Assembly (NCBI GenBank): GCA_964187785.1
Contig: OZ076409.1
Span: 1,426,001-1,490,000 of the forward strand
DNA length: 64,000 nt
Direction of reading: 5' to 3'
DNA from: Amphiscolops sp. MND2022
Lineage: Eukaryota
Made by a program: the position numbers and the translations under genes
The notes under the pieces: model-generated
What the model saw: only the letters and a program-made list of their open reading frames with translations
The model's database searches: none
What the model was told of the DNA's origin: nothing
Shown: positions 10,821-32,389 of the stretch, in pieces
Position numbering within the stretch: position 1 is the stretch's first letter
Layout: every line of letters starts with the position of its first letter

Positions 10821-12279
10821 AAGGCTAACACTGCATATAGTAGAACAAAAGTTTCTTCTGAAATAGAAGTTTAGGAAACGTGTTGTACGTGCAAATGATT
10901 TAACGCCAATTTTATGTGAATGACGCTGCAAATACTGGATATCTTGATACAGTGTATATTGAGCGATTAATCGAAGTTCTGGTGAAATATACATCTGAGC
11001 CCCCCCCCACTTAAAGCTCAAAAAGCTCAGCCTCATTCAAAAGCTCAGATATCGCTGTTATGAAATTCTCATAAGTTTCAAAGTGTCAAAAAATTAGAAA
11101 GGCCCCTTAATTGAAAACGTCAAAAATTGCAATATGGTTGGAAAAATGCAATTTTCGAGAAAACGTTTGTCGCACATTGTGGAGAAACACAGAAGGGGAT
11201 CCTTTAAGTTCGAAATACTTGTTTTCCCAAATGGAAACATGGAAAAAATGGGAGGGGAACCTCTTGATGAAATGAAAAAAAAATGAAAAATGTCAAAAAA
11301 ACCTTCGGTCGCACATAATTTTCAGGATACGGTAAAATTATAAAACACTCGAAGGGTAGATAACATTGGCTTCTTTGTGTACCCTTCAGAACTTAGGCGG
11401 AAACTCTGCAAAACGTTGACCCTCATCCTTTGTGAAGTCTATAGCCTTACAAAAAAACTTGCCACGACGAAAACATGCTATTTTATTTTTAAAAAGCGTT
11501 TGCCATGAAATTTCTCATTTGTTCACTCTATTTTTTCTAGGAGTCACTTGAAACCTAGAAAATATGTCAGACTTTTCGAATCAAATAGTGAATATCAAAG
11601 TAAATGGACCAAAAATGTTGTATCTTTTGGAGCAAGTTTTTTTTCTAAATTTTGTATCAGTATTTTGTGAAACCTTCAATTATGTTTTCAATTAAAATTG
11701 GTTCGTTGTTACAACCTAGCGCCTTCAATGTGTCAACAAAAACCAAGCTGTCAATTTGGTTGACAGTTTTTTAGAGTTTGAAAATTTGAATCAATGGGTT
11801 TGAATTGTTTTCAAAATCAACAAGTTTATATGAAATGAACACGTTTTATGAAATTAGTTTGAAAAAATTGTGGGAATTATGATCAAACTGACATGTAGTA
11901 ACAAAGTAACATCAATAAAAAGTAATTAAATACACACATGGTCAAGCTTCTGTAGTTTTCAGTAATTATTTTCGCATTCTCTTGCGTGCTGTGTTCATGT
12001 TTACGAAACGAATTCGAGTCTTTGCAAATAAATATTAACGTGTAAACTGGAGAAAAACATACAAAACTGGGGAAAAGTATTTTTTTGAAAATTTGGATGG
12101 AAACAAATGCACATAAGACGGGTAGTTCTGTGACTAATTTTGATGAAGATCGAAAAATTAACCAATGTTGATCAACTTTCTCTGATTTTTTCACCCGTGT
12201 TTTTGCTTTGTGCCATTTTTTTGAAAATTATAATTAAATTTCTATTCTATGAAATTTTGCCAACTCCATGCAAGTTTTT

Positions 12280-12560
12280 TCATTTCCAGTCAGATTTTTT
12301 CAAATCCAGGCAATGTTTTTTGATTTTCAGTCAGGTTTTTTCAAATCCAGGCAAGTTGGCAAGTTTTTTTTCTTTTCCAGGCAAGTTGGCAAGTTTTTTC
12401 ATTTCCAGACAAGTTTTTTTCACTTCCATGCAAGTTTTCTTTCAAATCCAGTCAGGTTCTTTCAAAACCAGTCAAGTTTTTTCAGTCAGTTTTTTTTCAA
12501 ATCCAGGCAAGTTTCGTCAAATCCAGGCAAGTTTTTTCCATTTCCAGTCAGTTTTTTTTT
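12280..12560 (+). repeat. Low-complexity minisatellite (CAAATCCAGGCAAG / CATTTCCAGTCAG units separated by T-runs)
   Basis: More than ten related short units directly before the exon 2 acceptor. Confidence 0.8.
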
Positions 12561-14555: not shown

Positions 14556-15801
14556 CAGTAGAGTATTGTGACTGTGGAAAGAGCTTCTAAAGTTGGAAAA
14601 TGTCGATTAGGAGCAAATCTGTTGTGTTATTTCTCTGAATCGAAACAGTCAAAGAGAACTTTCATACGACAGTGAAGCATAGACAGAAAATCAATTTTTT
14701 GCCCGATCGTAATCTGGACTTTAAATTTTTTTTACTAAATTTCGAGAAAATCACCCAATACCAAAAAATTATGAATCATTCTTGAACATTGACAATTCAT
14801 TTTACCAATGCTTCAAAAGTTTTGAACATTTCCTAAAAGAATGGGACCTATTTGCTTCCAACAAAATGTTCATTTTCAATACTCTACTGATGCCTTCGAA
14901 AATCAAGTTATAACTAACTACTGCTTAATTAGAGTAGACAACGCTTAACGTTCCCCAAAGCCGGCGACCAACTATTTCGAAATGATAATTTCCATGAAAT
15001 TTTCATTTCGAAATCAAACCAGGATTGGGTCTTTTCGGTCGTGGCCTCCCATACTTGAACTGGATAATGAAAAATTTGACCTTGTATGATCCAGAAGAAT
15101 TACTTTCTTTACTAAATCTCGAAAACCTTCGTACCTTTTCAAACGTCAACTTCTCAATACATATATTATATAGTATATATATAATAAAAATGCATAAAAT
15201 ATAAAAAATTTAAAAAATAAATATATTTATGCATTTTTAGAGGGATTGCATAACTTCTAAGCTAAGGTGTACGATTAAGACACGAAAAGACCCAAAGTGA
15301 ATTTTATCTTTCTTAGCAAATAATTGTGTTCGTGAAATACAAGCAACAAGCAAGCGGCATTAAATGAAAACTTGCAACTAATTTATTACAAGTTGAGTGA
15401 GCTTTCATTCTAAAGATGAAGAAACTAGACGATTAAAGTTTGATTGAATTTTCTTTTGATATGCAATTAGAGACTTACTACATGAAGTATTTTTATCGAT
15501 CGTTCAAGAAAGCACCCTGTCAAATTCAGCACCTATACCTTCATTTATATTGTATATAAAAAAGAAAGAAAAAAGCTGAAATTTCTTGTTTCATTCTCAC
15601 GAAATCAAATTATTGCTGTTTTGAGATGGTTTTATTTTTAACAGTCACATTTTGAATGAAGGTCAAATTCCGACTACTTGGAAATTTTGTCAAACTTTTT
15701 TAAACTATGACAGCAATTTACGTTAGAAGTTTTCACAGTGTAGTTTATGATTTGTCAAAATGAAGGCCTAAATCAGAGAAATCCCTTTTCCTCATATTTA
15801 T

Positions 15802-17520
15802 TGTCGCAGGCTGCCGCCTGTGACGGCACTAGGATTACGACAACAGCAGTTGGCCAAGATGTGGCCCCAGGAACTCTCCCTATCTATTAAAGTAAACTAA
15901 AACTTTCTCTTAAACTTTTACATTGTTCATGTATTTTGTTGCCATATTATTTTAGAAAATAGCCAAAAGGGCCATATTGGGACGTATTCCCTTATTACTA
16001 AAACTTGGAAATATTGCACTTGTTGGTTAGTTATGATCGATCTTAATTTTGGATGCTAATTATATGTTAGTCTGTTAACATAGATAGTGTTGTACTGTTG
16101 TATTATCAATGCGATGCAGTAATAATCAAAGATTGTGGTAAGCAGCTTAAAGAAAGTACGGAAACGAGTTCAAATGGACTCCTGTACTTTCTTGCTAGCG
16201 TCACTTGCGCTCACTCAATTAGCCAATCAGAGGCCTTCATTTTGTATGCTTTATTCTTTTGCCAATTACGGCCATTGTACAAACTGGACAGAAGTGCTAT
16301 TAATGCCGTTCAGGCAGTTGGCCTAATCCGGCCATTCAGTCCGCCGTAAATAAAGTACTTGTGATTGGTGCTAATTTCATGTAATGATATTTAGCTAATA
16401 GTCAGCTTTGTTAATCATGGAGTACTAGTTTGAAGTGTTGATTGATGTTTTGTCGTACCACTAAAGTTATCCAATTTGTTCTAAAATAGATGTTGCATGA
16501 GATACGATATTATTGCCTTACTAGGCCTTTTGCCATTGTACCCATGAAAGGTATTTACGTTAAACATATTTGTTGTGCTGCCACGTGCTAAAGTATGTGC
16601 ACTTATGTCAACAAATACCTGTCTGATGAAAATGTTTTGACAAATATGTAAACGATGCTAACGGTCGAATGATTATTCCTTTGATGTATGTTATTTGGAA
16701 GGGATATTGTTCATCCCGTGATCATCAAAAATGCAGTCATATGATATTGCCTTAGTCAAAGAATGTAAAGAATGGGAGTGTCACTCTTTCAGGGGTATAA
16801 ATACCCGTGCCTTGGAGAGAGGAGTCACTTCTCAATTTGCTCTCTTTTGAAAAAGACTATCATATTAGTACAAACGGTTTCACTGTTATTTTCGAGATAT
16901 AATCTAATTTAGTTTTATACTCGAAGTTTTCCTTATGCCTACCACAAGAAAACAAAAGAAAGCCAGAAAATCTAGAGGACTAGAGATCCTTTCTGATATC
17001 GAAAATCTGGATATAATGTTAGGAGACAATTGTTATAATGGAACTGAGAGAGAAAGAAGCTTGGACAATAACTTCGTCGGAAGGAGAGAAAGCATTACAA
17101 GTAATAACTTAGACAATGAAGGCGAGAGCCTATTTTCTAATTGCAGAAATGATGAACTTAGGACAAATGCCGATTTCGGTCAAAATTCAGCTGAAGCAAA
17201 CTCACTAACTGAGATAAACAGGTTGTCTAGCGAATTGAACTCTAGGATATCTCGAGAGATGGATGAAGTGATGAACAATGTTGGAATACAGATCCAAAGG
17301 GCCATTAACGAGGCTATCAATAGTCAAGTATTACCTCAGATACAGAATGTCATAATGGCCGGATCGGGCCGACAGACCGGGAGGGGATGGGAAGTCCCAG
17401 TTGAGAGACCGGAAACAAATGCCGAAGATAGGCTTAATTCCAACGCAAAGCCCAATCTCAGAAGTGAACAGGGGGATAATCACCGTTTTAGTGAGAATAC
17501 CACACAGCATGTTCATGACA
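15802..17520 (+). repeat. 5' LTR (1,719 bp)
   Basis: Starts TGTCGCAGG, ends CATGACA. No mismatch with 30059-31777 found in spot checks; the ORF translations in the two copies are identical. Confidence 0.95.
16796..16830 (+). promoter_or_regulatory. LTR core promoter: TATAAATA plus Inr-like TCACTT (predicted TSS ~16827)
   Basis: TATA box at 16796 lies inside the inverted repeat GGGTAT-AA-ATACCC. The Inr A is 31 nt downstream, and the gag ATG 108 nt further. Copy at 31053-31087. Confidence 0.6.
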
Positions 17521-18647
17521 TGGTGACAGGAGACACCGAATCTCCACCTCAAGTTCCCGAGTTTCTCACGGGACGAGTCTCATCCAGAAACCATCTTGAC
17601 AGGTCCTATGAGGACATCAACCTCGACACGACGATCCCAGCACAAGAGAGAAATGCTCCGGCTGCTCTGACTGACCCTATTACTCGACTGGCAGATGTCT
17701 TGACAACGATGCAGAATAGGCCGACAGCCCAACAACTCACTATACGCCCAGTCAATTCCAACACAATGACTTTTGATGGCAAGAGTGAAAAATTCGAGCT
17801 GTTTGAGGACCTGTTCCATACGATGATCAAGATGCAACCAGAAATGACTGAACAAATGAAGATCAATCATTTCCACTCTTTATTGAGAAAGAATGCTCTT
17901 CAAACGTTCAGAAACATCAGTTCGAGCAATAGACAAACTTTAGAAGATGTATTAATCATCTTTAGACGAAAATACGTCAAGCCCGAGTCACAGGCAACCG
18001 CCAAACACAAATGGCACCGACTAGTCTTTGATCCCAACACGATGAAACTGCCCGACTTCCTTGAAGAATTAAATCAAGGGGCAGAAAAGGCGTTTGGCGA
18101 TCACGCGCAAAAAATGATTGACAGCTTGCTTTACGCAAAACTGCCACCGAAACTGAAAAGGTCTGTAAATATGGCAAGACTAGAAAATGGCTCATATGAC
18201 GAGATAGTTGCTCATTTGGAGAGGGAATTAGAGCTTAACGCCCTCGAGGAGTCAGATGATTTACCAATAGCAACAATGACTTCCTCATCAACCAAGCCCA
18301 AAACCCCTCTGTCCGCTGGGCAAATGTCTGATATTACTTGCAATTATTGCAAAGAAAAGGGCCACATAGTCAAGGAATGCGAAAAACTCAAAAAGAAGAA
18401 AGAAAAAGATGCCCAACAAGGCAAACAGATTCAGAAAAAGACGTATCCGGAGTGTGGCACATGCGGTAAAAAGAACCACCCGGAGGAAAGATGTTGGCAA
18501 GGTGCCGGTGCGCATCTTAAACCCAAACGCACCAGACCAGATGACGCTAATGAAGGCAAACCCAATTCAAAGGCGCAGAAACCGCAAAACAAGCCGACAT
18601 CTTCAAACTCAAAATCCTCATCTTCCGACGATGAGTCAAAAAACTAA
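16935..18647 (+). CDS. gag: Gag polyprotein, 570 aa, with two CCHC zinc knuckles
   Basis: Capsid-like FDGKSEKFELFEDLF region; CNYCKEKGHIVKEC and CGTCGKKNHPEERC (CX2CX4HX4C). The first 195 codons lie in the 5' LTR. Confidence 0.9.
   Translation: MPTTRKQKKARKSRGLEILSDIENLDIMLGDNCYNGTERERSLDNNFVGRRESITSNNLDNEGESLFSNCRNDELRTNADFGQNSAEANSLTEINRLSSELNSRISREMDEVMNNVGIQIQRAINEAINSQVLPQIQNVIMAGSGRQTGRGWEVPVERPETNAEDRLNSNAKPNLRSEQGDNHRFSENTTQHVHDMVTGDTESPPQVPEFLTGRVSSRNHLDRSYEDINLDTTIPAQERNAPAALTDPITRLADVLTTMQNRPTAQQLTIRPVNSNTMTFDGKSEKFELFEDLFHTMIKMQPEMTEQMKINHFHSLLRKNALQTFRNISSSNRQTLEDVLIIFRRKYVKPESQATAKHKWHRLVFDPNTMKLPDFLEELNQGAEKAFGDHAQKMIDSLLYAKLPPKLKRSVNMARLENGSYDEIVAHLERELELNALEESDDLPIATMTSSSTKPKTPLSAGQMSDITCNYCKEKGHIVKECEKLKKKKEKDAQQGKQIQKKTYPECGTCGKKNHPEERCWQGAGAHLKPKRTRPDDANEGKPNSKAQKPQNKPTSSNSKSSSSDDESKN
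17521..17532 (+). promoter_or_regulatory. Primer-binding site TGGTGACAGGAG (tRNA-Leu-like, tentative)
   Basis: Directly after the LTR-terminal CA. 11/12 match to TGGTGTCAGGAG, the complement of a common metazoan tRNA-Leu 3' end as I recall it. Confidence 0.6.
18638..18644 (+). promoter_or_regulatory. -1 ribosomal frameshift slippery site A_AAA_AAC at the gag/pol junction
   Basis: Gag ends TCA AAA AAC TAA. The pol frame is -1 relative to gag and opens at 18635, just upstream of the heptamer. Confidence 0.8.
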
Positions 18648-21600
18648 CTTCGCCACGACTCCAATATAACGAACTAATATCTGTCCGACAATACATCAGA
18701 TCGGACCCTCCAACACAAACTTTCCACCAATACAATCAACAATTGATGGGCTATCCCTCTGTTGTCTGGCAGCAGCAGATGGAAAAAGCTACCATCATTA
18801 CCTACAATAATACCCATTTGTTCCAGAAACCAATTCCTGTATGGGATCCTGATTACACATCTGCTTTCAATAGCCGATTCAGGCCCATTCCCCTGGTAGA
18901 CAATTACAACCCTACCTACATAGACCCCGATTATGGACGAGATCCCTATTGGGACACGGAACTCTACAACCAAGATCTCCTACAATTTCAATACGTCATT
19001 GATGACATCGAACTCTACAATAAATCAGCCCATGAAAACCCTCCAATCACCCACAACAAGAAAACTAGAGCATTGATTGAAACATGGCAGATGAATGATG
19101 GTACAAGCCATCCGGTGTTCCCAAACCCCTTGGGGACCGAGACCTCAGACAAACCAGACGAAACAATACCACAGTCACTACTTGATGAAAGTCAGTTCCA
19201 AAACATCCTCATCACTAGAGAAGGAGAACCAGACTGTATTCCACTGTCCACCAACATAAACTTGAAATGCAAAAAACGCATGCTGTATTTCCCTATGGAC
19301 TTTGGGGAATTGACCATAGACGGACTTATCGACACTGGTGCATTATCCAGTGCAATCCCCGAAATGGACCTCCGGAAAATCAGGCTCCTATCACCCCAAT
19401 CAGTCATCCGGGAAGGTCCACCTCCGAATTTCCAGATAATGGTCGCAAATGGGCAACTAGAGACTCCCAAGAGTACAATAGAGCTCAAATTCGAAGTTGG
19501 TGACATAGAGTTCCACGAAATTTTCATAGTAATGGAACACTTGACAGGACCGATCATAGGGCTGATGTTCCTACAGAGAAACCATACAGTTTTGGACATG
19601 AGGCAAGGAATACTGAACTTTCCATTCTTTTCGATGCAGCTCAAAACAGCTGACCACAAATACTCGAATGTACTCGAACCAATTTTGAACCCTACCGAAA
19701 TAACCATTCCGCCAAACGACAGAGTCCTAATTAGGACCAATTCCCTATTGTACCCTGAAAACACGGTCACAGGGATTTTACAACCGAGCGACCTTCTCCA
19801 TGAAGAAGGCGACATCACATTCTGTCCAGCCTTGGTCACCATGAATGACGGCAATATATTGATACCAGTGAATAACTTCACAGACCACCCTTACAAACTC
19901 AAAAAGGGACTCCATATTGCTAGTTTTTCAGTCATGACGCCAGAACAAATGAAATATGTCAAACCAGTAGACCCGGCATCAACCTGGCATTTGTTGCAAA
20001 ACGACCAAGAGCAGGCAGCCCATTACGTCAGTAGCCTGATCAAGACGAATAAAAATTCACAAAACTCTGAAAACTACTGGTTCCCAACCCCAGAGAATCC
20101 AGGGAACCCAGCAGAACATACACCAATCCAAAAAAGGATACTCCGCGAATTACAAGCCCTACAGGACCTAGAATCACTCGATCCCACAAAGGATGAGGAA
20201 TCTAGGGCAAAATTCCTAGAAAACTTTGACTGGAAAGACTCCACATTGACACCTGATGAAAAAGAGAAAATCGAACGATTACTAGTGGAGTTCCATGATA
20301 TCTTTGCGAGACATAGATTCGACATAGGCATGAATGAGGAATTCAAAGTGAAGCTGACACCCAAAGATGATTCCCCAGCCTATAGCCAGAGCCTCCCTGC
20401 ACCGATAAACTTAAAGGAGGACATTTTAGTCGAATTGGCCATGCTCCACAAATACGGCATAATAACTACCTTACCGTTCTCGAAATACGCCAGTCCGATA
20501 TTCGCACAAAAGAAACCGAATGGGAAACTGAGACTTCTGGTTGACTTGAGAAAAATCAACAACCTAATCTCTGATGATTATATCAACAATAATCACCCAG
20601 TCAGTACCCTCGTCGATGCCGCCCAACACATGGCAGGCAAGAAACTCTTTTGCAAGTTGGACTGCTCACAGGCGTATCATTGCCTTCCGATGGCTGACCA
20701 ACGTTCAATCGAAATGTTGGCCTTTAACTTTGCAAGCCGCACATTTGCCTATAGACGGCTGGCACAAGGCCTTAATAGGGCTCTGTCCGCATTCTCCAGC
20801 TTTATGAGAGAATACCTTGATAAAGTCATAAAAGCGGACCAATGTGCTCAGTATGTAGACGACATTGGAATCGCAGCCAACGACGCAGATCACCTCATTG
20901 CTAACCTGAGAGCAACTTTCAAATGCATACAGGAAGCAGGCCTTAAATTGTCAATGCATAAGTGCCATTTTGGTGTCACAGAAATCGATTTCCTTGGCAG
21001 GACAATAACCGCACAAGGCGTCAAGCCCCAACGGCAGAATGTTCAGAATTTCCTAGAAAAGACCAAATTTCCGAAGTCGAAAAAGGCTCTACAAAGATAT
21101 TTGGGTTTCTTGAACTACTACCGGAATTATGTCCCAAGACTGTCTGAACGCCTTGCTCCGTTCTACAAAATGCTGAAGAGTGACGAAAAAGTCCTAGTGT
21201 CCAAAGACCTAGTTCAGCAATTTGAGGAAATCAATCGAGCTCTGGACAGATGCTGCGACTTAGCCCTACAACAACCCATCCCGAACAAACAAATCGCCCT
21301 AATGACAGATGCAAGTTTTGGTGCTGCAGGATATGCAGTACTCATCGAAGATGACCCGAGTCAGAAATTCACGTCAATCCGCAAATCATATGCTCCGGTC
21401 GCCTATGGTTCAAAAACCTTCACCCCAGCCCAGATAAAGATGTCAATTTATGCAAAAGAATTTCTCGCAATTTATTTTGCATTCAAAGAATTTGGGCATA
21501 TTTTTTGGGGAGCGCCGAAACCGGTCATAATCCTAACCGACAACAAAGCCGTAACAAGATTCTTTCAGACGAAAATCGTACCCCCAGCTCTGTGGAATGC

Positions 21601-23839
21601 ATGCGACTATGTGATTCAATTCAATTTTGTCATCGCGCACATCCCAGGAGCACAAAATACAGCAGCGGATTACTTGTCCCGATTGGAAGCAGACCCAAAG
21701 GACAAATTAATAATGAAAATCCGAGAAGATGTACAAACATTGCCAATAGAAATAAACGTCCAATCAGCAGGAGTCTCACAGGAAGAGCAAATCTTCTACA
21801 CCAATGACGACGATGAGACTGAAGAACAATATTGGGCGAGAAAAGAGGCAATCAGGAAAAATCCTGTAATCGAAGACACTACAGTTACAATACAAACTCT
21901 TTCCACTAACTTAGCCAAACAACAACCTGAAATACAAGTCCGATTGAGGAAAACAAACCAGATAATTATTGAGCAATCCAAGGATGCAGTATTACATCAA
22001 TTGAAGGCAAAACTCCTTCACGAAGACTACTCAGAAAACATACTGCAACAGGATGCTCGATATAGACACTATGCAAATAATCTGGAACGAATCGTACTCA
22101 AGGACGAAATCCTGACAAGGCAATACTTCGATGAAACAGGGATAGTGAAATACCATCAGATTTTACTCCCGCAACATCTACTCCGGGAACTGCTTCAATC
22201 CCTTCACGGGACAGCACACAAACACCCCGGAATTTCAAAAATGCTGCAGGAAATTAGACAAAGGTATTACTACCCTAACATGGCTAAACACGTCAAAAAG
22301 TGGGTAGAAGGGTGCGAACAATGTGCCAGAGACAAAAGAGTCCCTGACGCAACGATCACACCAGAGCTGCTCAATTTGCCCGAATGGGACCTTGGACCTG
22401 AAGACGCCATGCAAATTGACCTATTGCCGAATCTTCCCCCAAGTGGAGGGTATGAAAATGTCCTAACAGCAATTGATGTTTTCTCCAGATATTTATTCGC
22501 TTACCCTCTCACGGACGCATCAGCGATCAATGTAGCCAAAGTACTCATTGATATTATGACCAAACATTCCTACTTACCGACAACGCTCATTACAGACAAA
22601 GGAACTGCATTCACTTCCACAATTATTGCAGAAATTACCCAAATTTTAGGAATTACCCTAAAATGTGCGACAACAAAGCACCCGCAAACTATCGGGAAAT
22701 TAGAGCGCACACATGCCTCATTGAAAACAAACTTGAAAATGGCATGTGGGGAATATCGCCGACAATGGCACAAATATTTGCCATTAGCAGTTCTGAATCA
22801 CAATACTAGTTATCATGCCAGCATCGGATGTGAACCGACAAGAGTGTTCCATGGAAGAATCCCATACAACATCTTGGATCACAAGCTTGGAACAAATCCA
22901 AACGAGCAAATCCATCCGACTACCGAATTCGCAGAAGAAATCCAAAACCGGACAAAAATCCTAATTGACAAAACGAAGCAGAACATTATGCAGTCCTACA
23001 TCAAGTACAAAGAATATTACGACCGCAAAGCAAAAGCCGCTCCATTAAAGGAGAAAGAATACTGTTTTGTCTTACAGCCGAAAGCGGACAATCAAGGATC
23101 AAAAATCCCATTTAGAGATTATCGCTGGGTTGGACCGTTTATAGTCCAGAAGACCTTACCCAATGAGAATTACATTGTCCGCAGGCTTAATACAAATAAA
23201 ACACAGATCTTGCATCGAATTCGTCTCAAAAAGTTTGTCCCAAATCAGCCACTTGAGGACAATTTCCGTGAGCAACGCTTGCAGCCAGACGAAGAAATTG
23301 TTATTCCGCAGGATGACTTATACATCATAACGTGGGAAACCGACTTTGGCGAGCAGCTAACTACCCGAGACAACGAAGCTATTCCGACTAGCTTACCGAC
23401 TGGCGAACAGCCGAGTACGGAACGAATCAACAATGACGCAAACGAGAGTGACGCGGATTATACAATCACGCGAGAAACGAATAACGACAATACGGCACAC
23501 AGCCGGAATGACCGCTTGAGTGACAACGTCACAATGGGAAATGAAGATAATGATGCAAATAGAAATAAAAAATCCGATTGGCCGAATCCGGCCGCTAGCC
23601 CAAACACTCAAGAAAAATCACCGGGTACAACAAATGCACCGGAAAATCATGAAATTTTGTCAGAAAGAAATCCGCTGAATGAAAAAGATGCTCGAAACTC
23701 TCCAAATAGGGGGGATGATATTATCGTGCCCGAAATATCTGAAAACGATGCTAGAAACGAAAGCCTGAGCCCTAGAGGAGGAAAATATAACCTCAGACCT
23801 AACCCCAACCCAAACTACTCAGAAGACTATAGATACTAG
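18638..23839 (+). CDS. pol: Pol polyprotein (protease, RT, RNase H, integrase), intact, probably made as Gag-Pol by -1 frameshift
   Basis: LIDTGA protease; KLDCSQAY/YVDD RT; TDAS..E..TD..ADYLSR RNase H; HHCC + IDL/TDKG/LERTH integrase; WVGPF motif. Frame open from 18635 to the TAG ending at 23839 (the track starts it at 18743). Confidence 0.96.
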   Translation, partial: KKLTSPRLQYNELISVRQYIRSDPPTQTFHQYNQQLMGYPSVVWQQQMEKATIITYNNTHLFQKPIPVWDPDYTSAFNSRFRPIPLVDNYNPTYIDPDYGRDPYWDTELYNQDLLQFQYVIDDIELYNKSAHENPPITHNKKTRALIETWQMNDGTSHPVFPNPLGTETSDKPDETIPQSLLDESQFQNILITREGEPDCIPLSTNINLKCKKRMLYFPMDFGELTIDGLIDTGALSSAIPEMDLRKIRLLSPQSVIREGPPPNFQIMVANGQLETPKSTIELKFEVGDIEFHEIFIVMEHLTGPIIGLMFLQRNHTVLDMRQGILNFPFFSMQLKTADHKYSNVLEPILNPTEITIPPNDRVLIRTNSLLYPENTVTGILQPSDLLHEEGDITFCPALVTMNDGNILIPVNNFTDHPYKLKKGLHIASFSVMTPEQMKYVKPVDPASTWHLLQNDQEQAAHYVSSLIKTNKNSQNSENYWFPTPENPGNPAEHTPIQKRILRELQALQDLESLDPTKDEESRAKFLENFDWKDSTLTPDEKEKIERLLVEFHDIFARHRFDIGMNEEFKVKLTPKDDSPAYSQSLPAPINLKEDILVELAMLHKYGIITTLPFSKYASPIFAQKKPNGKLRLLVDLRKINNLISDDYINNNHPVSTLVDAAQHMAGKKLFCKLDCSQAYHCLPMADQRSIEMLAFNFASRTFAYRRLAQGLNRALSAFSSFMREYLDKVIKADQCAQYVDDIGIAANDADHLIANLRATFKCIQEAGLKLSMHKCHFGVTEIDFLGRTITAQGVKPQRQNVQNFLEKTKFPKSKKALQRYLGFLNYYRNYVPRLSERLAPFYKMLKSDEKVLVSKDLVQQFEEINRALDRCCDLALQQPIPNKQIALMTDASFGAAGYAVLIEDDPSQKFTSIRKSYAPVAYGSKTFTPAQIKMSIYAKEFLAIYFAFKEFGHIFWGAPKPVIILTDNKAVTRFFQTKIVPPALWNACDYVIQFNFVIAHIPGAQNTAADYLSRLEADPKDKLIMKIREDVQTLPIEINVQSAGVSQEEQIFYTNDDDETEEQYWARKEAIRKNPVIEDTTVTIQTLSTNLAKQQPEIQVRLRKTNQIIIEQSKDAVLHQLKAKLLHEDYSENILQQDARYRHYANNLERIVLKDEILTRQYFDETGIVKYHQILLPQHLLRELLQSLHGTAHKHPGISKMLQEIRQRYYYPNMAKHVKKWVEGCEQCARDKRVPDATITPELLNLPEWDLGPEDAMQIDLLPNLPPSGGYENVLTAIDVFSRYLFAYPLTDASAINVAKVLIDIMTKHSYLPTTLITDKGTAFTSTIIAEITQILGITLKCATTKHPQTIGKLERTHASLKTNLKMACGEYRRQWHKYLPLAVLNHNTSYHASIGCEPTRVFHGRIPYNILDHKLGTNPNEQIHPTTEFAEEIQNRTKILIDKTKQNIMQSYIKYKEYYDRKAKAAPLKEKEYCFVLQPKADNQGSKIPFRDYRWVGPFIVQKTLPNENYIVRRLNTNKTQILHRIRLKKFVPNQPLEDNFREQRLQPDEEIVIPQDDLYIITWETDFGEQLTTRDNEAIPTSLPTGEQPSTERINNDANESDADYTITRETNNDNTAHSRNDRLSDNVTMGNEDNDANRNKKSDWPNPAASPNTQEKSPGTTNAPENHEILSERNPLNEKDARNSPNRGDDIIVPEISENDARNESLSPRGGKYNLRPNPNPNYSEDYRY

Positions 23840-24070
23840 AGAAAATTAAATTCGATTCAGGAAACTAGCCCTGAATTGCTTTGTCTTTTTCTCTTTTTAT
23901 CTTCTATTTTTTTTAAGTCCCAAGGCGAATCTTTTGAATAAATAATTGGGACAACCAACAACACCCCTTCAGGAGAATAAATACGAGGCAAAGAAAAAAC
24001 AGAAATGAAAATTCAACAAAAGAAATAAACAAAGTTTACAGTCTGTAAGTACATAAATACATATGTACAA

Positions 24071-25233
24071 TTAACTCTTAGAACCACCAGCAGAAGATTC
24101 ACTATGGACGGACGAAGCTCTACCCCGGGAACTACTCTTTTCCATCCGCCTCCGCTTAGTACCACTGGGCGGCCTCACAGCAGGAACATCAGGCACAGAA
24201 GAAGTATCAGCGAAGTTGGGACTTCTAAATTGGAATTCTGACCCGGCGAGGACAGAGCGATAGGAGGTGACGAGAGTCTTGTAAATTGCTGAACGGCCGA
24301 AGCGGTCTACAAAGGTCCACGGGTCGTAATCGGCAGTGAAGGCAGTCTGTCCAAATGTAGAAGACAATTCGAAAAATTTATCGAGACGAGACTCAGAACA
24401 GCAGGCAACCAGAGAATCTGGCACTGTTGACAGATAACTTTGACAAGGCAAGATGACATCCGCTAAACGGGACTGAAGCCCCTTTGTGTCAATCTTACCC
24501 AAAGAAACAGAAGGATACTCAGGACTCACAGAAGTGATACAGAGGCAACTCAGCTTGAACAAATAACAGAGATGCTCATGAGTGTGGAGGAACTCCAATC
24601 CCATAAAGAAGTCAATGAGATCAGGAGGATCGCAGGAGGAGTCGAACTCAGAAGAATGATTAGCTCGGAGGTAATCCAATAAGGCAACGTACTCGTCCCG
24701 GCAAACTGACTCATTGGACGCTGAAACCCAGGAACGCAGTTGAAAGGTAGAATATAGACGGTCAAAGTGCCGCAAAGCAACTTCTACGGGCCTCCTAAAG
24801 AGGATATGTGGATCAAACGCAGCCAGTCCTTTGATGAGGTCAGACCCGAGTTCGGAGTGTTGAAGTACTCCGGACAACAAGAACTTGATGAATTCCTTCG
24901 AACTCTTCACAAAGTCTGACTTTGCACTTTCGGCAGTCTTGTCGATGGCTGCCTTGCTGGACTTTTTATTGAAATGAAGCCCCGCTGCCTTCAAGTTGCT
25001 CGCTGTAGCCACTTTACTAGCAATCTTGAGCCGTACCAGGAAATCTTCGTCACTCATAGGCTTGCCCTGACTGATTCGGAAGTCCATCAACAGGAACCAA
25101 GCGCTTTCCAGAGGCACAGTGTCAGGCTGGTAGATGCGGAAACAAAGACGATTGATGTACTTGCACATCTCTCCACAAAGGAAGAAGGTAGCATCTCGCC
25201 TCTGACCCAGATTGATGGCGAAACTAGTGACAT
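24071..25233 (-). CDS. Antisense accessory gene, exon 6 (last): hAT C-terminal-like helical region plus basic tail KRRR
   Basis: Acceptor ttctgtgtttcag|AT, phase 1. Reads (Y)VTSFAINLGQRRDATFFLCGEMCKYINRL..., in frame with track ORF 24071..25168. Confidence 0.8.
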
Positions 25234-25307
25234 CTGAAACACAGAACCTGAAGGTCCTTAAAAGGACGACAGACCAAAAGGGGCTCCACCAGACAAGAGA
25301 TACTCAC

Positions 25308-25389
25308 AATCGCTGACCAGGCGTTGGAACAGCTCCAGTTTGACAGCGAAGAAGGTGTCCATGATCAGGGACCACTCGAAGCTCTGGAC
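25308..25389 (-). CDS. Antisense accessory gene, exon 5
   Basis: tctttccacag|GTC...: VQSFEWSLIMDTFFAVKLELFQRLVSD, then T|gtgagt (phase 0 in, phase 1 out). A 74-bp intron follows. Confidence 0.75.
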
Positions 25390-25499
25390 CTGTGGAAAGA
25401 CATGGTGTAAATTCGGAACGATAACCCTACCTATGCTTATGAAAAGGAACGTCCACTAGAACTATCTCTAAAAAGACAGATGATTTTGTGAATTACAAC

Positions 25500-25634
25500 C
25501 TTGTTATGGACCCCTTGATTCTCCTGTCGGCGTGAATACACAGTGAGGTAACGCAGGATCGACTTCCACCTCTTCAGTAGATCACGACACAGATCAGGTA
25601 TTTTAGCTACCTCCAGAGTGCAAGTTGTAATAGC
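25500..25634 (-). CDS. Antisense accessory gene, exon 4
   Basis: Branch-like CACTAAC, then gttttgtttag|GCT: AITTCTLEVAKIPDLCRDLLKRWKSILRYLTVYSRRQENQGVHNK. Donor AAG|gttgta (or GTT|gtaatt 3 nt later; both phase 0). Confidence 0.72.
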
Positions 25635-25731
25635 CTAAACAAAACGATTTGAAAATAGGAACCCTAACTGTTAGTGGCTACCTCCGCCCTTCACCTATAT
25701 TATACAAAACAGGTTTGCAAAATGCACTTAC

Positions 25732-26217
25732 TTGGACAAGTACAGTCGATTCGTTGACCCAGTCCTCAGATAGGCAGCCTCCAAGCGAGACCAGAAGACA
25801 CTGGAGGACGGAGAACATGTCAATGTGCCCGAAAACGCTGTAGTTTACCTTGTGCATCAAGGCCCTCAACTCAAGCGTCTCGAATCGGAAGCAGCTTTGG
25901 ACCCCACGAGGGAAGGAGGGATGCTGGTCCACTGTCCTTATCAGGTCAACGGCACATCCAGATATCGCGACCACATCAGGAGCGGTAGAAATGGCAGACA
26001 ACAATCGTGATAGGGAGCCCATCTCCTCAGTGAGCCCGACGCCGGAAAGTCCACTTCGACAGACGAAGATGCGACAGAGCTGTGCACCCTTCCAAAATCG
26101 GAGAGACATCAAGCGGTTGGCCCCTCTCTTTTCGAACTCAATCCCATAGTGCTGGGAAGCGATGACATGTTCTGCCACGTCTTCCATCATGCAATTGAAG
26201 ACGTGTTGGAAAACGGC
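25732..26217 (-). CDS. Antisense accessory gene, exon 3 (degenerate RNase H-like core of a hAT transposase)
   Basis: gttccgtttcag|GCC: AVFQHVFNC...YGIEFEK..LMSLRFW..VVAISG...STVLVQ|gtaagt. Phase 0/0. Confidence 0.8.
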
Positions 26218-26316
26218 CTGAAACGGAACATAACTCGAATGACCATACGGCCTTACCATTGCAAGTTACCCTTACACTACGAATGACTCCATGATGAAAT
26301 AAACGAGTGAACTTAC

Positions 26317-28280
26317 CATGATGTGGTCTTCACTCCAGTCGAAATCTTGGAAGGCTGATTGGAATCCAGTATAGCTTCCTGCTCTAGCCCACAACCTACG
26401 GAGGATAGCTATGTTGCCTGAATCTTGAACGAAATCTCCCAAGAGGCAAATCTGGGCTTGCAGTCGCGACTGAGGTGTTACTGGTGCCGAAGAGTGTCCC
26501 TTCAAGTAATCCTCATAAAAAGGATGTCTCTCACCGACGTCAACGAGCTCTGTGTGGATGAATTTGGGGAGCTCTTGCGCAAGGTCAGATTTATTGAGGA
26601 TTTTGCCGTCCCTTCCTCGGACTCTGTGGTGGACCTTCCCTGTCACGTCGTCAACTGTCTTGAGGTGCTCATATCGCCACCTCTGGTCTCGGCGAAGGTG
26701 TTTCTCAGTTCTGTGGTGGCGCAAGATTTCCACAGTGCCTTTGGTCTTTATACTAAAGTTTTTCTTGCACATGTGGCACCACACCATGTGAGGGTTATGT
26801 AAGGGATCGGCTGGGCCAGAAATAAAGGATCGAGTCCATGCTATCTTGGAGAAGAACTCCTCACGCATAGGCACACCCCGCCTCGGCATCCTTTTGCTTT
26901 TACTTTTCTTGACTGAGACAACTGCCTGACGGGACTTCTGGGTAGGAAGCCGATCGCGAAGCTCAGACAGAGTGCAGTCCAGACTGCTCCTTTCCTGTAT
27001 TTCAGCCTCTCCTTCAGTCGTGCTATGTGGCAATTCTGGTTGTGAGGATACAGAGAGATTTTCAGGAACAGTTTTGTTATAAACTCTGTCAATCAAGAGC
27101 CGTTCCATAGTACTATCACTATCTTCGGGATAGGAGAGGCCGCTGACATCCTGAAGCGTGCTCAGGTCAAGTTGGGGACTAGGCTGAGAGCCAAGATCGG
27201 CAGAAAACTCGTCGGAGCTGGTCCCTGCTTGGCAATTGGATCCTGGGGAGGGAACTTGGGCTCGCGTCTGGAACTTCTTAGTCCGTGAAGGGGCAGTCAA
27301 GGGAGTTCCTTTCACTGCTCCAAGTACCATTCTCTCCATGGTGGTGCAGGTCATATTGATGGCTTCGTCAGTAAGGACCCGAAGCAGGTGGTAAACCTGC
27401 GGCTCTGTGAAGGCTACAACCCTCTGACCAACCGGGAACGTGTAGGGGTCTTCAGCCTCAAAGTACTGTTTGAGGGTGGCTCTGCTGCGTCCTGATAAAT
27501 CTCGCAGAACTTCTTCTTGTGGCTGAGGATTAAACTGAGAAGTCCCTGGCGGTCCTGGATCATGTATTTCTGATCCCGAGTCTTCTTGAGTTTCTGTTGC
27601 TGACCCCATTCCAAAGGGGATACCCGCGTACAAGAGGGGAATTTCAGACTGACTGGTAGTATCAACAGCCTGAGTGGTGTCACTATGGTTTCCTGAAGCG
27701 GTGAAATGACTTGCCCCACCGGGGAGTGGAGGGGGTTCATGGACGGAAGAAGAGGCTTCATCACCAGACTGCGGGAGAGAAACTGCAGATGTATCGTGGC
27801 TATGGTCCTGAGCAAGTTGCAGCTCAGGGAAGCCAGACTGAGATTGTGGCGCGACTGACAGTGAGGACTCGAGCTGTGAAATACTAGTAACTTCTGTTCC
27901 AGGCTGACCAAAGAGCGTCGGAGTGCTAGTTCTCACTCGGATAGGGACGTGGTCCGTGCCTGGGACAACTGGGTCTTGTGCCGGAGACGGCTCTTCTCCT
28001 GTAGGACTGGCAAGATCTGTACCAGTCAACTCCTGTGAGACTTCCATACGTTGGACCATCTCGTCTGCATATGCTGTGACATCGACGTTGCTTTCATTGC
28101 TGAAAGGAGAGTCAACAGCCAACTGTTGTGTCTGACCGAGGAGCGTTCTTATTGGAGGGAATGGAGGTGGAGAAGGCGTATTGCTGGGCATTGAGATGGG
28201 TACGGGACGGTGAGGAAGCGCAGCGGAATTACCAGTTGTGGTAATGCTTTGAACTTGTGGTTCATCGACGTTCTGTTGTT
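26317..28280 (-). CDS. Antisense accessory gene, exon 2 (long S/P/T/E-rich disordered region plus BED-type zinc finger)
   Basis: Acceptor tttcatctctttctgtttag|AA. VWCHMCKKNFSIKTKGTVEILRHHRTEKH at ~26784-26698. Ends DHIM|gtaagt, phase 0. Confidence 0.85.
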
Positions 28281-28479
28281 CTAAACAGAAAGAGATGAAA
28301 TTTGGCGGTAAGCTTCCTTGAAAGAAATCCATTCTACCGCATTAGAAAACTTCCGGAAGTACTTTGAAAATTTGAACAAAACGTGTTATCACGTGTTTAC
28401 TGATGGATACAGGAAGCATTTTGTGAACAAATTTAGCCCTGATCAAGTTAAATTAAGTTCAAAACCAAAGCAAACCAAC

Positions 28480-28495
28480 CTTCAACTGAAGACAT
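28480..28495 (-). CDS. Antisense accessory gene, predicted coding exon 1 (MSSVE-)
   Basis: ATG TCT TCA GTT GAA G|gttggt. Phase 1 matches the 28280 acceptor, and the donor hexamer is the same as Shaw exon 1. An alternative start is the ATG at 28332. Confidence 0.5.
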
Positions 28496-29376
28496 TCTGT
28501 CCTGCTTCGCCTTTTACTGTCGGACCGATCAAACTCAGGAGACGTAGAATCTGGCCGGACTCGGACCAAGGGCAAGTCCCGGGAGTACTTCAAAGAGGAA
28601 GAAGGATGCTGTTGGAGAGATTAAGAAGAGTGGGGAAAACTGTTCGATACGGGGTACCAGAGGAAGAAGATAAAGAAAAATAATTGGAATTGAATCGGAA
28701 TTAAAAGAGGTTAATGGAATTTAAAGTTGGAGTTCGTGGCTGAAGAAAGTTACCAGACTAATATTATTTAGTTATCTACATATTTATTCTGTACATGGAG
28801 TCTGCCAGCGAAGTGTACAAGAACCTTATTATCTACAGCTTACTTAGTTAGTGGCCTATCCTGGCCGTTTGACCAGTTGTACTTTATAGTTTCGTTCTGT
28901 TATCTTGGATTATTCTCAATTAGGAAATCCGCCATTTTGAATTATTTTGATTTATTATTTTCGCCATTTTATTATCTAATTTTTCATTTTATCAGAGCTT
29001 AACTCTGATTGGCTGGAACCATATTGAAAGAATTTAGCGGTGCGAGCTATTAAGCGATCCGAAGCAAGCCGTTAATTACCCACTTGAAGAGAAGATATTT
29101 GATATCAACAACTTAAGTGCTGCTTACACCCACTTTGATGATGGCTCGCATGAAAGGCAAACACCTACTTAATCGGAGCCGCCGACCCTGCTTAGGAATT
29201 TCATTCAGGAAAGTTTATGATGAATCGGGCTAATCAACCTGAGATTCTCCCGCTAAATTGGAAACTTCGGGAAGAAGCCTAACTCGGAATTTGGGGAGGC
29301 AACAAGCTCATTCTAATTTCAAACTCGCTCTCGACAAGTTGATTAGCAAATCTCCAAAATTGCGAAAAAACTAATA

Positions 29377-30147
29377 ATGGAAAGATTTAATAAAGCGAGA
29401 AAACTCTTTGGTTCTTTGGAATTCAGCTCCGACTCATCGGGAGACTCAGTAATATACATCAGCAGCGATGAAGAAACCTCTGACGGATGGGACTCAGACT
29501 GGTCCACGGACACGGAAGAGATGGTGAGAAGGATTGAAACTCAAGTCCAGGCAAAACCAATTCTCATAGCCGGCAGAAAGATGACGACGGCAAGCGACGA
29601 ACCGGGCCCTAGCTCCGTGCCTTCAGACGTGCAAACCACACCGAAATTGGACAAGACCTACTTCGACGAAAAACTATGCTATGCTCCGTCTAGAGGCAAC
29701 ACAAAGAGGAGAATAGAATTGTGCAAGACAATTCTGCCTGTGTTAGAGTCGCCGCTTTCGCCGCCCGCTCATGAAAGGGGGCCGTCTATGGATACGCCGA
29801 TGACACAAACCGAAAGTAGTGAGTTCCATGCCTCTTTCCACATACAAAACGCGTTGCCTTATACTGATATCAGCTCCCAAAGGTGCACAAGCTGTATGGT
29901 GTGTGGAAAATCTGTGGACGAAATAAAAGCCATGAAGATAAACAGATATATGGAAGCCTCGACTCCAAAGAGCGAACCCGCTTACATTACAGCTCTCAGA
30001 AAAGAAGCTTACATCAATGGTCTTAATGCGGGCAGTCTCCTTTTTATTGCACCCGCTGTGTCGCAGGCTGCCGCCTGTGACGGCACTAGGATTACGACAA
30101 CAGCAGTTGGCCAAGATGTGGCCCCAGGAACTCTCCCTATCTATTAA
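29377..30147 (+). CDS. Accessory ORF, 256 aa, unknown function; last 89 nt lie inside the 3' LTR
   Basis: Uninterrupted ATG ORF with an acidic Ser-rich N-terminus and a CTSCMVC Cys cluster. No signal peptide or clear TM helix. Crosses the LTR boundary at 30059. Confidence 0.7.
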   Translation: MERFNKARKLFGSLEFSSDSSGDSVIYISSDEETSDGWDSDWSTDTEEMVRRIETQVQAKPILIAGRKMTTASDEPGPSSVPSDVQTTPKLDKTYFDEKLCYAPSRGNTKRRIELCKTILPVLESPLSPPAHERGPSMDTPMTQTESSEFHASFHIQNALPYTDISSQRCTSCMVCGKSVDEIKAMKINRYMEASTPKSEPAYITALRKEAYINGLNAGSLLFIAPAVSQAAACDGTRITTTAVGQDVAPGTLPIY

Positions 30148-31777
30148 AGTAAACTAAAACTTTCTCTTAAACTTTTACATTGTTCATGTATTTTGTTGCC
30201 ATATTATTTTAGAAAATAGCCAAAAGGGCCATATTGGGACGTATTCCCTTATTACTAAAACTTGGAAATATTGCACTTGTTGGTTAGTTATGATCGATCT
30301 TAATTTTGGATGCTAATTATATGTTAGTCTGTTAACATAGATAGTGTTGTACTGTTGTATTATCAATGCGATGCAGTAATAATCAAAGATTGTGGTAAGC
30401 AGCTTAAAGAAAGTACGGAAACGAGTTCAAATGGACTCCTGTACTTTCTTGCTAGCGTCACTTGCGCTCACTCAATTAGCCAATCAGAGGCCTTCATTTT
30501 GTATGCTTTATTCTTTTGCCAATTACGGCCATTGTACAAACTGGACAGAAGTGCTATTAATGCCGTTCAGGCAGTTGGCCTAATCCGGCCATTCAGTCCG
30601 CCGTAAATAAAGTACTTGTGATTGGTGCTAATTTCATGTAATGATATTTAGCTAATAGTCAGCTTTGTTAATCATGGAGTACTAGTTTGAAGTGTTGATT
30701 GATGTTTTGTCGTACCACTAAAGTTATCCAATTTGTTCTAAAATAGATGTTGCATGAGATACGATATTATTGCCTTACTAGGCCTTTTGCCATTGTACCC
30801 ATGAAAGGTATTTACGTTAAACATATTTGTTGTGCTGCCACGTGCTAAAGTATGTGCACTTATGTCAACAAATACCTGTCTGATGAAAATGTTTTGACAA
30901 ATATGTAAACGATGCTAACGGTCGAATGATTATTCCTTTGATGTATGTTATTTGGAAGGGATATTGTTCATCCCGTGATCATCAAAAATGCAGTCATATG
31001 ATATTGCCTTAGTCAAAGAATGTAAAGAATGGGAGTGTCACTCTTTCAGGGGTATAAATACCCGTGCCTTGGAGAGAGGAGTCACTTCTCAATTTGCTCT
31101 CTTTTGAAAAAGACTATCATATTAGTACAAACGGTTTCACTGTTATTTTCGAGATATAATCTAATTTAGTTTTATACTCGAAGTTTTCCTTATGCCTACC
31201 ACAAGAAAACAAAAGAAAGCCAGAAAATCTAGAGGACTAGAGATCCTTTCTGATATCGAAAATCTGGATATAATGTTAGGAGACAATTGTTATAATGGAA
31301 CTGAGAGAGAAAGAAGCTTGGACAATAACTTCGTCGGAAGGAGAGAAAGCATTACAAGTAATAACTTAGACAATGAAGGCGAGAGCCTATTTTCTAATTG
31401 CAGAAATGATGAACTTAGGACAAATGCCGATTTCGGTCAAAATTCAGCTGAAGCAAACTCACTAACTGAGATAAACAGGTTGTCTAGCGAATTGAACTCT
31501 AGGATATCTCGAGAGATGGATGAAGTGATGAACAATGTTGGAATACAGATCCAAAGGGCCATTAACGAGGCTATCAATAGTCAAGTATTACCTCAGATAC
31601 AGAATGTCATAATGGCCGGATCGGGCCGACAGACCGGGAGGGGATGGGAAGTCCCAGTTGAGAGACCGGAAACAAATGCCGAAGATAGGCTTAATTCCAA
31701 CGCAAAGCCCAATCTCAGAAGTGAACAGGGGGATAATCACCGTTTTAGTGAGAATACCACACAGCATGTTCATGACA
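30059..31777 (+). repeat. 3' LTR (1,719 bp)
   Basis: Direct repeat of 15802-17520, followed by TSD TTTAT. Confidence 0.95.
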
Positions 31778-32389
31778 TTTATATTATCACGTGTTTATTA
31801 CAGGAGGAGAATTTTCAACTTCCTAAATTGAATAGGATTTCCGCATTATATCTTGTTTCTCTCCACAATGGTTTGTTTCGTTGCAGATTAAAGTTAAATG
31901 CTCTTAGATGAGATAATCTTGTAATTTATTGTAATTCTCAACACTACGTAGGATTTTATAAGTCTCTGAAGCGTATCAAAATGAGACTTGAATCCTTTGT
32001 AACCCCTCACATATTGCAAATACCTGACAGCTTTATTACTTTTCACTTATTGTGGAAGATCATTTGAGGTATATTATAATATTATAAACTGTTTAGTAAC
32101 AATATTAAACGCCTTGAAATTTGCTGCAGCAGTTACTGAGTTCTTTACACGTGGGTTTGATCGAAACATAAACTCCGAACAATATGAAATATCACCTTTT
32201 ATGGACTTAACATTTACATGGGAACGGCATATTCTATTACAAAAACCGAATTACAATAGACCTTTGAAAAAGTAGTTTCCAAATATCAACTAACGAATGA
32301 TAATTCATGGAAATTAAAATGTGTATGGCCTATTTTTCTCAAAAATTCCAAAATTTATTTTGATCCAATTAGTAGAATTTTCAAACCTT

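Follow-up and report, generated by a model that had tools for sequence, protein, structure and literature searches.

What are two divergently arranged genes, one of them antisense and split by introns, doing between pol and the 3' long terminal repeat (LTR) of an animal retrotransposon, and do they belong to it at all? The question is raised by a young, intact LTR retrotransposon at positions 15802-31777 of a 64-kb stretch of DNA from Amphiscolops sp. MND2022 (the window, by which we mean the whole of this stretch). It has a wider bearing: accessory genes separate complex retroviruses from simple retroelements, but little is understood of those in retrotransposons, including the plant ones, among which such genes first came to light. 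We call the antisense gene A and the sense gene S1. With high confidence we regard the two as an integral, selected two-gene module, a built-in part, kept by selection, of an element superfamily that is large and active at present.

Two genes behind pol

The region between pol and the 3' LTR (23840-30058) measures 6219 bp. A preliminary description of the locus, made from the sequence alone, had put it at about 6.2 kb and held that it was not env, and indeed no env-like Pfam match was found in it. When the 6059-bp module was searched against the 1.07-Gb genome, at least 25 near-full-length module places emerged from the 25 of 4037 first-look candidates that were scored. Twenty loci were fetched, one being the window copy itself; among the other 19, two are 99.1-99.5% identical to the window copy and 17 are ~89-91% identical, with an LTR deletion at locus L007 and an insertion at the LTR border at L019.

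The antisense part of this region had been described as a multi-exon gene, a claim that holds for the window copy: five exons, spliced in silico, give a coding sequence running from 28332 to 24071 on the minus strand, a single open frame of 1293 aa; the start first given, 28495, might belong to a 5' untranslated region. Three antisense open reading frames (ORFs) are thereby linked by canonical introns, the minus strand reading CATCATG/GTAAGT...TTTCAG/GCC at intron 1. Head-to-head with this gene stands the 256-aa sense ORF, at the very position first reported, with 1044 bp between the two start codons. The parts of the module are as follows.

26317-28332, minus strand: exon 1 of A, 672 codons, with 0 indels in 20 of 20 copies (2058 nt examined)
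26218-26316, minus strand: intron 1, 99 nt, GTAAGT...CAG, with in-frame stops inside (sequence and copy comparison)
25732-26217, minus strand: exon 2, 162 codons
25635-25731, minus strand: intron 2, 97 nt, GT..AG (sequence and copy comparison)
25500-25634, minus strand: exon 3, 45 codons (gene model; order kept in divergent loci)
25390-25499, minus strand: intron 3, 110 nt, GT..AG, 109-113 nt among copies (copy comparison)
25308-25389, minus strand: exon 4, 82 nt (gene model; order kept in divergent loci)
25234-25307, minus strand: intron 4, 74 nt, GT..AG, 73 nt in some copies (copy comparison)
24071-25233, minus strand: exon 5, 386 codons and the stop, coding for a predicted all-helical domain and then a tail, modelled at low confidence, that contains KRRR
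28333-29376, no strand: spacer between the A and S1 start codons, 1044 bp (six-sequence alignment)
29377-30147, plus strand: S1, 256 aa, with its final 89 nt in the 3' LTR

Comparison of the 20 copies bears on both the exons and the introns of this model. GT..AG is retained in 79 of the 80 introns (four in each copy), and the spliced frame is fully open in 14 copies, one of which (L018) has CT for the intron 2 donor. Intron lengths differ by 1-4 nt among copies, and the in-frame stops of the unspliced reading sit in the introns; exon frameshifts are confined to L006 and L012, with in-frame exon changes in L008 and L010. Exon 2 is flanked by AG and GT at identical codon positions in 20 of 20 loci, of which three are frameshifted and three carry a single stop.

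The gene structure itself varies further afield. In the P0072-type subfamily (e.g. G000:C3:59371143-59373674, L021-L026) a 78-nt intron 1 keeps the frame and has no stop, such that ORF callers give an 844-aa read-through product. In P0191 and P0127, two distant exon 5 relatives, exons 4 and 5 are continuous, without intron 4, which implies that introns have been gained or lost inside the A gene family.

Copies, subfamilies and selection

Could the 6.2-kb region have entered this particular copy alone, as a nested insertion or as a transduced host gene? The order pol end, module, LTR is colinear in 19 of the 19 other fetched loci, which refutes this explanation, and the module recurs in four divergent subfamilies, amongst 9000-12300 first-look genome candidates; the probability of a one-copy origin is negligible. 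The preliminary description had named the absence of the module from other copies, or a ratio of nonsynonymous to synonymous substitution (dN/dS) near 1, as grounds for abandoning its claim, and we find the module in all those fetched and ratios of 0.08-0.27 in the accessory ORFs.

The four divergent members used as queries against the genome uncovered many subfamilies with an intact exon 1, in one of which 20 copies match P0072 with 99-100% protein identity. In the four divergent subfamilies (~43% exon 1 identity) the five exons follow one another in order, with gaps of 70-125 nt, at 15 of 15 loci, and each of these also has S1 head-to-head with exon 1 at a distance of 1044-1127 nt. Protein searches returned relatives as well: 222 proteins for the exon 1 tail, where the 120 listed show 56-100% identity over the queried tail and appear as unnamed ORF calls of ~686 aa ending just past the exon 1 donor; 200 for S1, where the 120 listed show 49-95% identity and are mostly 256-262 aa long; and, at E <= 0.001, 460 cluster representatives for exon 5, of which 100 reach E <= 1e-30, with identity going down to ~25%. 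None of the ten exon 5 relative clusters that we looked up carries a name, a search for longer proteins returned no full-length spliced forms of A, and a Joint Genome Institute (JGI) metagenome scan with exon 2 found no relative. Since the best match of P0191 in this genome reaches only 29-31%, P0191 must come from another genome, and the family therefore extends beyond this species.

Ratios of dN/dS were calculated by the Nei-Gojobori method for the window copy against the 17 copies that are ~9-10% divergent from it.

Exon 1 ORF of A: 0.17
25681-26259, which holds exon 2 of A: 0.27
Exon 5 of A, from its ATG: 0.10
S1: 0.08
3' end of pol (22502-23836): 0.11

Purifying selection on A and S1 is thus as strong as on pol. 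The remaining frames give 0.86-3.5, save for the mirror frame on the opposite strand, which has the same wobble position and whose ratio is, as expected, also low; the strand of A is therefore taken from its open frames and splice sites, and not from dN/dS. Random ORFs are excluded by these frame-specific ratios together with the conserved splice sites.

It is worth considering whether the open frames could be held by a constraint on the RNA or DNA itself, for packaging or regulation, without being translated. The non-coding parts of the module are well kept too, at a distance of 0.09-0.11 against a dS of 0.19-0.31, as such a constraint would have it. However, low dN/dS is confined to the called frame and its wobble-sharing mirror, the introns vary in length whilst exon frameshifts are confined to two copies, and the splice sites are kept between subfamilies with 43-60% protein identity, in a family whose proteins align down to 25%; we therefore regard an untranslated module as highly improbable.

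The spacer deserves attention of its own. In an alignment of the window with five loci from four other subfamily searches, 444 of 1153 columns are identical, and these cluster in conserved non-coding blocks (28336-28366, 28722-28822, 28928-28987, 29062-29093 and 29250-29271) which are common to subfamilies whose proteins share only 43-60% identity. The block CTTCCGGAAGT lies 4-34 nt upstream of the A start codon, the block at 28722-28822 is 100 nt long, and the spacer also holds two CGCCATTTT motifs and the conserved block GTTAATTACCCACTTGA. An RNA-fold signal was not found in any spacer block, which fits protein-binding DNA, and from this we infer that the spacer would act as an internal bidirectional promoter.

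A separate observation concerns the history of the module. Between near subfamilies the 3' end of pol diverges more than the module does (dS 0.93 vs 0.19-0.31), the LTR stands at a distance of 0.10, and pol identity is just 83-84% in five loci (22500-23839 compared with 23840-31540, in L004-L020). This contrast suggests either a recombinant history or an extra constraint on the module.

The element around the module

The carrier of the module is an autonomous, very recently inserted Ty3/Gypsy-type LTR retrotransposon of an animal genome. Its youth and integrity had been read from LTRs without visible mismatch, a perfect target-site duplication and an unbroken gag/pol, and all three stand: the LTRs are identical over 1719 bp (0 mismatches, the 1720th matching base being a chance match just beyond the LTR), TTTAT lies on both sides, and both frames are open. 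The genome also has 43 matches to the nuclear-receptor zf-C4 domain, a family that is to our knowledge restricted to metazoans, which bears out the animal host presumed at the outset. The features of the element outside the module are listed here.

15797-15801, no strand: target-site duplication TTTAT, left copy (read from sequence)
15802-17520, plus strand: 5' LTR, 1719 bp, TGTC...GACA (self-comparison)
16935-18647, plus strand: gag, 570 aa, an open frame with two CCHC knuckles
17521-17538, plus strand: putative primer-binding site, beginning TGG immediately past the 5' LTR, within the gag frame (read from sequence)
18635-23839, plus strand: pol frame, open, 1734 codons, with protease, reverse transcriptase, RNase H and integrase (H2C2 and rve) (Pfam)
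18638-18644, plus strand: slippery heptamer A AAA AAC at the gag stop, with pol in the -1 frame
30059-31777, plus strand: 3' LTR, same sequence as the 5' LTR (self-comparison)
31778-31782, no strand: target-site duplication TTTAT, right copy (read from sequence)

In pol, Pfam recognises in order an aspartic protease, RVT_1, RT_RNaseH, Integrase_H2C2 and rve, at positions 184-278, 589-754, 824-949 and 1142-1313, with the RNase H of the Gypsy type and an H2C2 integrase domain; this domain set and its order fit a Ty3/Gypsy-type element, as had been proposed. The scan of gag gave a zinc knuckle and a weak match to DUF1759 that lies under the cut-off (24.6 bits vs 25.4), DUF1759 being a family frequent in Bel/Pao gag proteins. 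The gag and pol frames overlap by 13 nt, pol being -1 relative to gag, and gag ends in ...TCA AAA AAC TAA, in which A AAA AAC is a textbook slippery site; RNA folding of the frameshift region found no strong fold 3' of it (z -1.32).

The LTRs also have coding content. A TATAAA at 16796 (LTR position 995) lies 139 nt 5' of the gag ATG, which is itself at LTR position 1134, and the opening 586 nt of gag are LTR sequence. At the other end, the last 30 residues of S1 come from the first 89 nt of the LTR, in its unique 3' (U3) region, and an ATTAAA overlaps the S1 stop codon. Both LTR borders therefore fall in coding sequence, as the preliminary description had stated, and at least 675 of the 1719 LTR bases are protein-coding. 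The LTR-borne gag frame (31192-31536) has a dN/dS of 0.15, where four of the five other frames give 0.89-1.11, and is open in 17 of 20 copies, being broken in L007 and L017 and shortened in L019.

Rfam and tandem-repeat scans of the element gave no match, and no further fragments of it were found elsewhere in the window. Two neighbouring features lie to its left. On the plus strand, about 3 kb upstream of the insertion, an ORF at 12134-12826 matches BTB_2, of the potassium-channel tetramerisation type, and is probably a host-gene exon. On the minus strand, 66-2446 holds three successive open frames (312, 274 and 188 codons) that have no Pfam match and are unrelated to the element; they may be another repeat or a gene.

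Possible function and known counterparts

If the module is selected, for what? The N-terminal 480 residues of A are polar (S, T, P, Q, G, E and D make up 59%) with short conserved islands, and are followed by a basic cluster, KSKRMPRR, at residue 478 and by a finger, C-x2-C...H-x5-H, at residues ~519-545, with an invariant W-C-H-x-C-K-K-N-x-S-...-R-H-H-R-...-H. Past the finger runs a conserved block of ~750 residues, which closes in the low-confidence tail with KRRR. Exon 5 is modelled as an all-helical domain with a mean predicted local distance difference test (pLDDT) of 78.7; the finger with exon 2, modelled from subfamily locus L021 in which intron 1 is in frame, reaches only 37.6, too low for use. 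S1 has an acidic and serine-rich N-terminus, an invariant SVIYISSDEE stretch, a C-x2-C-x2-C motif and a nearly invariant C-terminus, PAVSQAAACDGT..., encoded by the first LTR bases.

We posit that A is a nuclear DNA-binding protein, given its basic clusters, BED-like zinc finger, long polar N-terminus and helical C-terminal domain, and that S1 could be a small acidic partner or adaptor. Introns in antisense orientation cannot be removed from genomic RNA, and are inherited through reverse transcription. The introns of A, being antisense to the genomic RNA, would in this way outlast retrotransposition, and only a transcript produced from the integrated DNA copy would have them spliced out. Both genes would be expressed from that integrated copy via a proposed internal bidirectional promoter in the spacer, and their products, acting in the nucleus, might jointly tune the transcription of the element or shield it from host silencing. 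Taken as a whole, the statement that this is a recent autonomous Ty3/Gypsy element with a permanent two-gene module of nuclear regulators seems to us somewhat more probable than its negation; the particular function proposed for A and S1, whether in the element's own transcription or against silencing, is a possibility that we put forward with considerable doubt.

Perhaps the module serves the replication cycle instead, with S1 as a Rev- or CERV-like RNA export adaptor and A as a nuclear-import, tethering or integration-site factor. S1 is placed like the accessory genes of retroviruses and is rich in serine and acidic residues, and A has a finger of the DNA-binding type. A precedent exists in Cer1, an animal element of the Ty3/Gypsy type that, according to excerpts of its description, requires CERV for the export of its genomic RNA (PMC10309623). 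On the other hand, no sequence likeness to such proteins was found, in comparisons from which CERV was left out, and the Pfam scan gave no RNA-binding domain match. Although we regard this as unlikely, it is the main rival to a regulatory role, and the present evidence separates neither from the other.

Where might A have come from? Three weak leads, from its finger, from the language-model features of exon 5 and from a structural alignment with Hermes, point towards the transposases of hAT elements, a family represented in our comparisons by Hermes (8edg), PF05699 and the FAM200-GTF2IRD2-like PF27046. Like these, A has a C-x2-C...H...H finger that aligns with zf-BED, with ~750 residues after it, a length typical of hAT transposases; in hhalign, residues 518-541 of A fall on the zf-BED finger of a genomic hAT (L054) with an E of 0.0026 and a probability of 11%. 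The language-model features of exon 5 resemble hAT C-terminal clusters: of 30 named matches in the ESM-Atlas, 28 are Dimer_Tnp_hAT clusters, with a score of 0.92-0.93, and two FAM200-GTF2IRD2-like. The exon 1 tail drew only unnamed clusters there, with a score of 0.85. A bona fide hAT core from the same genome is likewise without a significant Pfam match. On these leads we tentatively entertain, at somewhat less than an even chance, that A descends from a hAT transposase, possibly as a catalytically dead derivative.

A number of observations weigh against this descent, and against the regulatory proposal at large. The Hermes transposase, in favour of hAT descent, gives the longest structural alignment with the exon 5 model (163 residues, Z 5.0, rmsd, the root-mean-square deviation, 6.9), model residues 1-280 lying on chain positions 367-609, colinear with the C-terminal half of Hermes, but a Z of 5.0 is within the noise range of the tool for helical models. 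The shared features in the ESM-Atlas number 143-157, under the 170 typical of true family members. In hhalign, exon 2 against hAT has a probability of 0.4%, with one sequence on the hAT side, and exon 5 against four genomic hAT C-termini 0.1%; by eye, the conserved acidic triad is not seen in exon 2, where the expected positions hold E/K and S-G. Pfam gives no credible match for A or S1, in scans that took in 35 + 15 family members, and sequence and profile searches of the PDB with A and S1 returned nothing, or RNF4 at an E of 0.31. The motif names are provisional: SVIYISSDEE would be SUMO-interaction-like, CTTCCGGAAGT presumably ETS-like and CGCCATTTT presumably YY1-like. The transcription of A, its splice junctions and its promoter are predictions from sequence, and no canonical poly(A) signal was found within 370 nt past the A stop. 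Next to the 3' LTR a polypurine tract is absent, the nearest run of at least 11 purines ending 345 nt upstream, and the bases directly 5' of this LTR (30029-30058) are pyrimidine-rich S1 coding sequence. Finally, the linkage seen in the four divergent subfamilies covers the A exons and S1, and linkage to pol covers the near copies.

Other searches around the hAT question came back empty. Dimer_Tnp_hAT (PF05699) has no Pfam match at E up to 0.1 in the 35 family members, and zf-BED has no direct Pfam match in the finger of A. With the exon 5 model, Foldseek found nothing in the PDB at E <= 0.001 (best E 1.6), VIA had no stand-out either when run wide (best Z 5.6) or on the Foldseek list (best Z 4.8), and the best E against the viral structures of BFVD was 0.16.

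Should A still be an active hAT transposase, it would provide the element with a second, cut-and-paste route. The ESM-Atlas, Hermes and zf-BED finger leads could be read in this manner, yet neither Dimer_Tnp_hAT nor any other hAT family is matched in Pfam, hhalign is negative for exons 2 and 5, and the second catalytic position in exon 2, judged by eye, is an invariant S-G; moreover, the copies carry LTRs and 5-bp duplications, which are integrase hallmarks and not those of hAT, and make this route very improbable. A thus differs from hAT proteins in lacking Pfam and hhalign support, in not keeping the catalytic acidic residues and in lying inside an LTR element. A bolder version of the regulatory proposal, in which a dead, antisense, hAT-derived DNA-binding regulator and a partner with a SUMO motif drive the internal promoter or disarm SUMO-dependent heterochromatin silencing, strikes us as improbable, though worth stating.

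The hAT dimerisation domain is also matched at least 150 times in the genome, several of these matches lying in open frames of 597-697 codons. These long-frame matches imply that canonical hAT transposons coexist with the Gypsy superfamily.

How novel is this organisation? In fungi, the Boty-like Ty3/Gypsy elements that Botrytis cinerea carries are said to have an antisense gene, brtn, reportedly treated by Zhao et al. in 2011, and in maize, Grande gene23 is reportedly transcribed from its own promoter, to go by the title of a cited paper. Boty is fungal whereas the element here is animal, and we set the two side by side by layout, not by sequence. The plant elements Grande, RIRE2 and Retand carry antisense ORFs between pol and the 3' LTR as a trait of their lineages, as excerpts of two sources have it (PMC7264820, PMC11963269). 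The aORF-3R layout of such elements is what we find here, an antisense ORF lying between pol and the 3' LTR in 19 of 19 near copies and 15 of 15 divergent loci. As in the plant Tat elements, with Grande gene23, RIRE2 and Retand ORF4 as examples, the ORF is post-pol, antisense and in nearly all copies of the lineage; as in Retand, the pol-to-LTR region is long (2.9-6.6 kb in Retand) and a nuclear or DNA-binding role is predicted (PMC7264820 and PMC11963269, in the same excerpts). Unlike those of the plant Tat elements, the gene here has an animal host, belongs to another protein family, has five exons encoding 1293 aa, and accompanies an LTR that is partly coding; neither Transposase_28 (PF04195) nor any other Pfam family was matched in A, which gives no sign of homology to the Retand antisense ORF. 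A conserved sense partner gene is not reported for plant Tat elements in the excerpted portions of these sources, where the sense ORFs of Retand are without known domain (PMC7264820, PMC11963269).

Animal elements offer partial parallels. Cer1 of C. elegans is likewise an animal LTR retrotransposon with an accessory protein, CERV, which is nuclear and needed for the element's own expression cycle; in contrast to A, CERV comes from a spliced sense mRNA, and the excerpted text does not mention an antisense gene (PMC10309623). Juno, Vesta and TelKA of bdelloid rotifers are LTR elements of animals too, and extra ORFs particular to each family follow their pol, yet their ORF3s are in sense orientation, with recognisable enzymatic or env-like domains, and an antisense intron-bearing gene is not described in the part of the source consulted (PMC5408684). 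With its putative regulator A, the module also recalls complex retroviruses, which have an antisense-encoded nuclear regulator (HBZ) and a sense ORF entering the U3 region of the 3' LTR (nef, sag). The nef ORF of the human immunodeficiency virus (HIV) and the sag ORF of the mouse mammary tumour virus (MMTV) both overlap U3. HBZ is the antisense gene of a complex retrovirus, the human T-cell leukaemia virus type 1 (HTLV-1), as excerpted from PMC11963269. Unlike in these viruses, env is absent, A seems to begin in the internal spacer rather than in the 3' LTR, and no sequence kinship is seen. The literature, in a search that had Repbase, Dfam and GyDB outside its range, yielded no Gypsy element from an animal that bears either a multi-exon antisense gene or a pair of genes like this one. 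The idea of an undescribed layout, advanced in the preliminary description, goes too far: as far as sequence and literature can tell, the layout is known in plants and fungi, where antisense post-pol genes have been described, with no animal description found.

What, then, does this element mean? It represents an unusually clean animal case, in which two accessory genes, instead of one, come with strong selection across subfamilies down to about 45% protein identity, fixed intron positions and a conserved, promoter-like spacer. For genome annotation, it is a reminder that five-exon genes as abundant as these, with copies in the thousands, may be mistaken for families of host genes. Because many copies are young (identical LTRs; 20 copies at 99-100%), the function of retrotransposon accessory genes becomes directly testable. 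If A did derive from hAT, it would show the two great classes of mobile elements stably and functionally merged; and should the bolder proposal hold as well, the genome of Amphiscolops sp. would harbour, in thousands of copies, a selected chimera of retrotransposon and DNA transposon with a counter-defence of its own.

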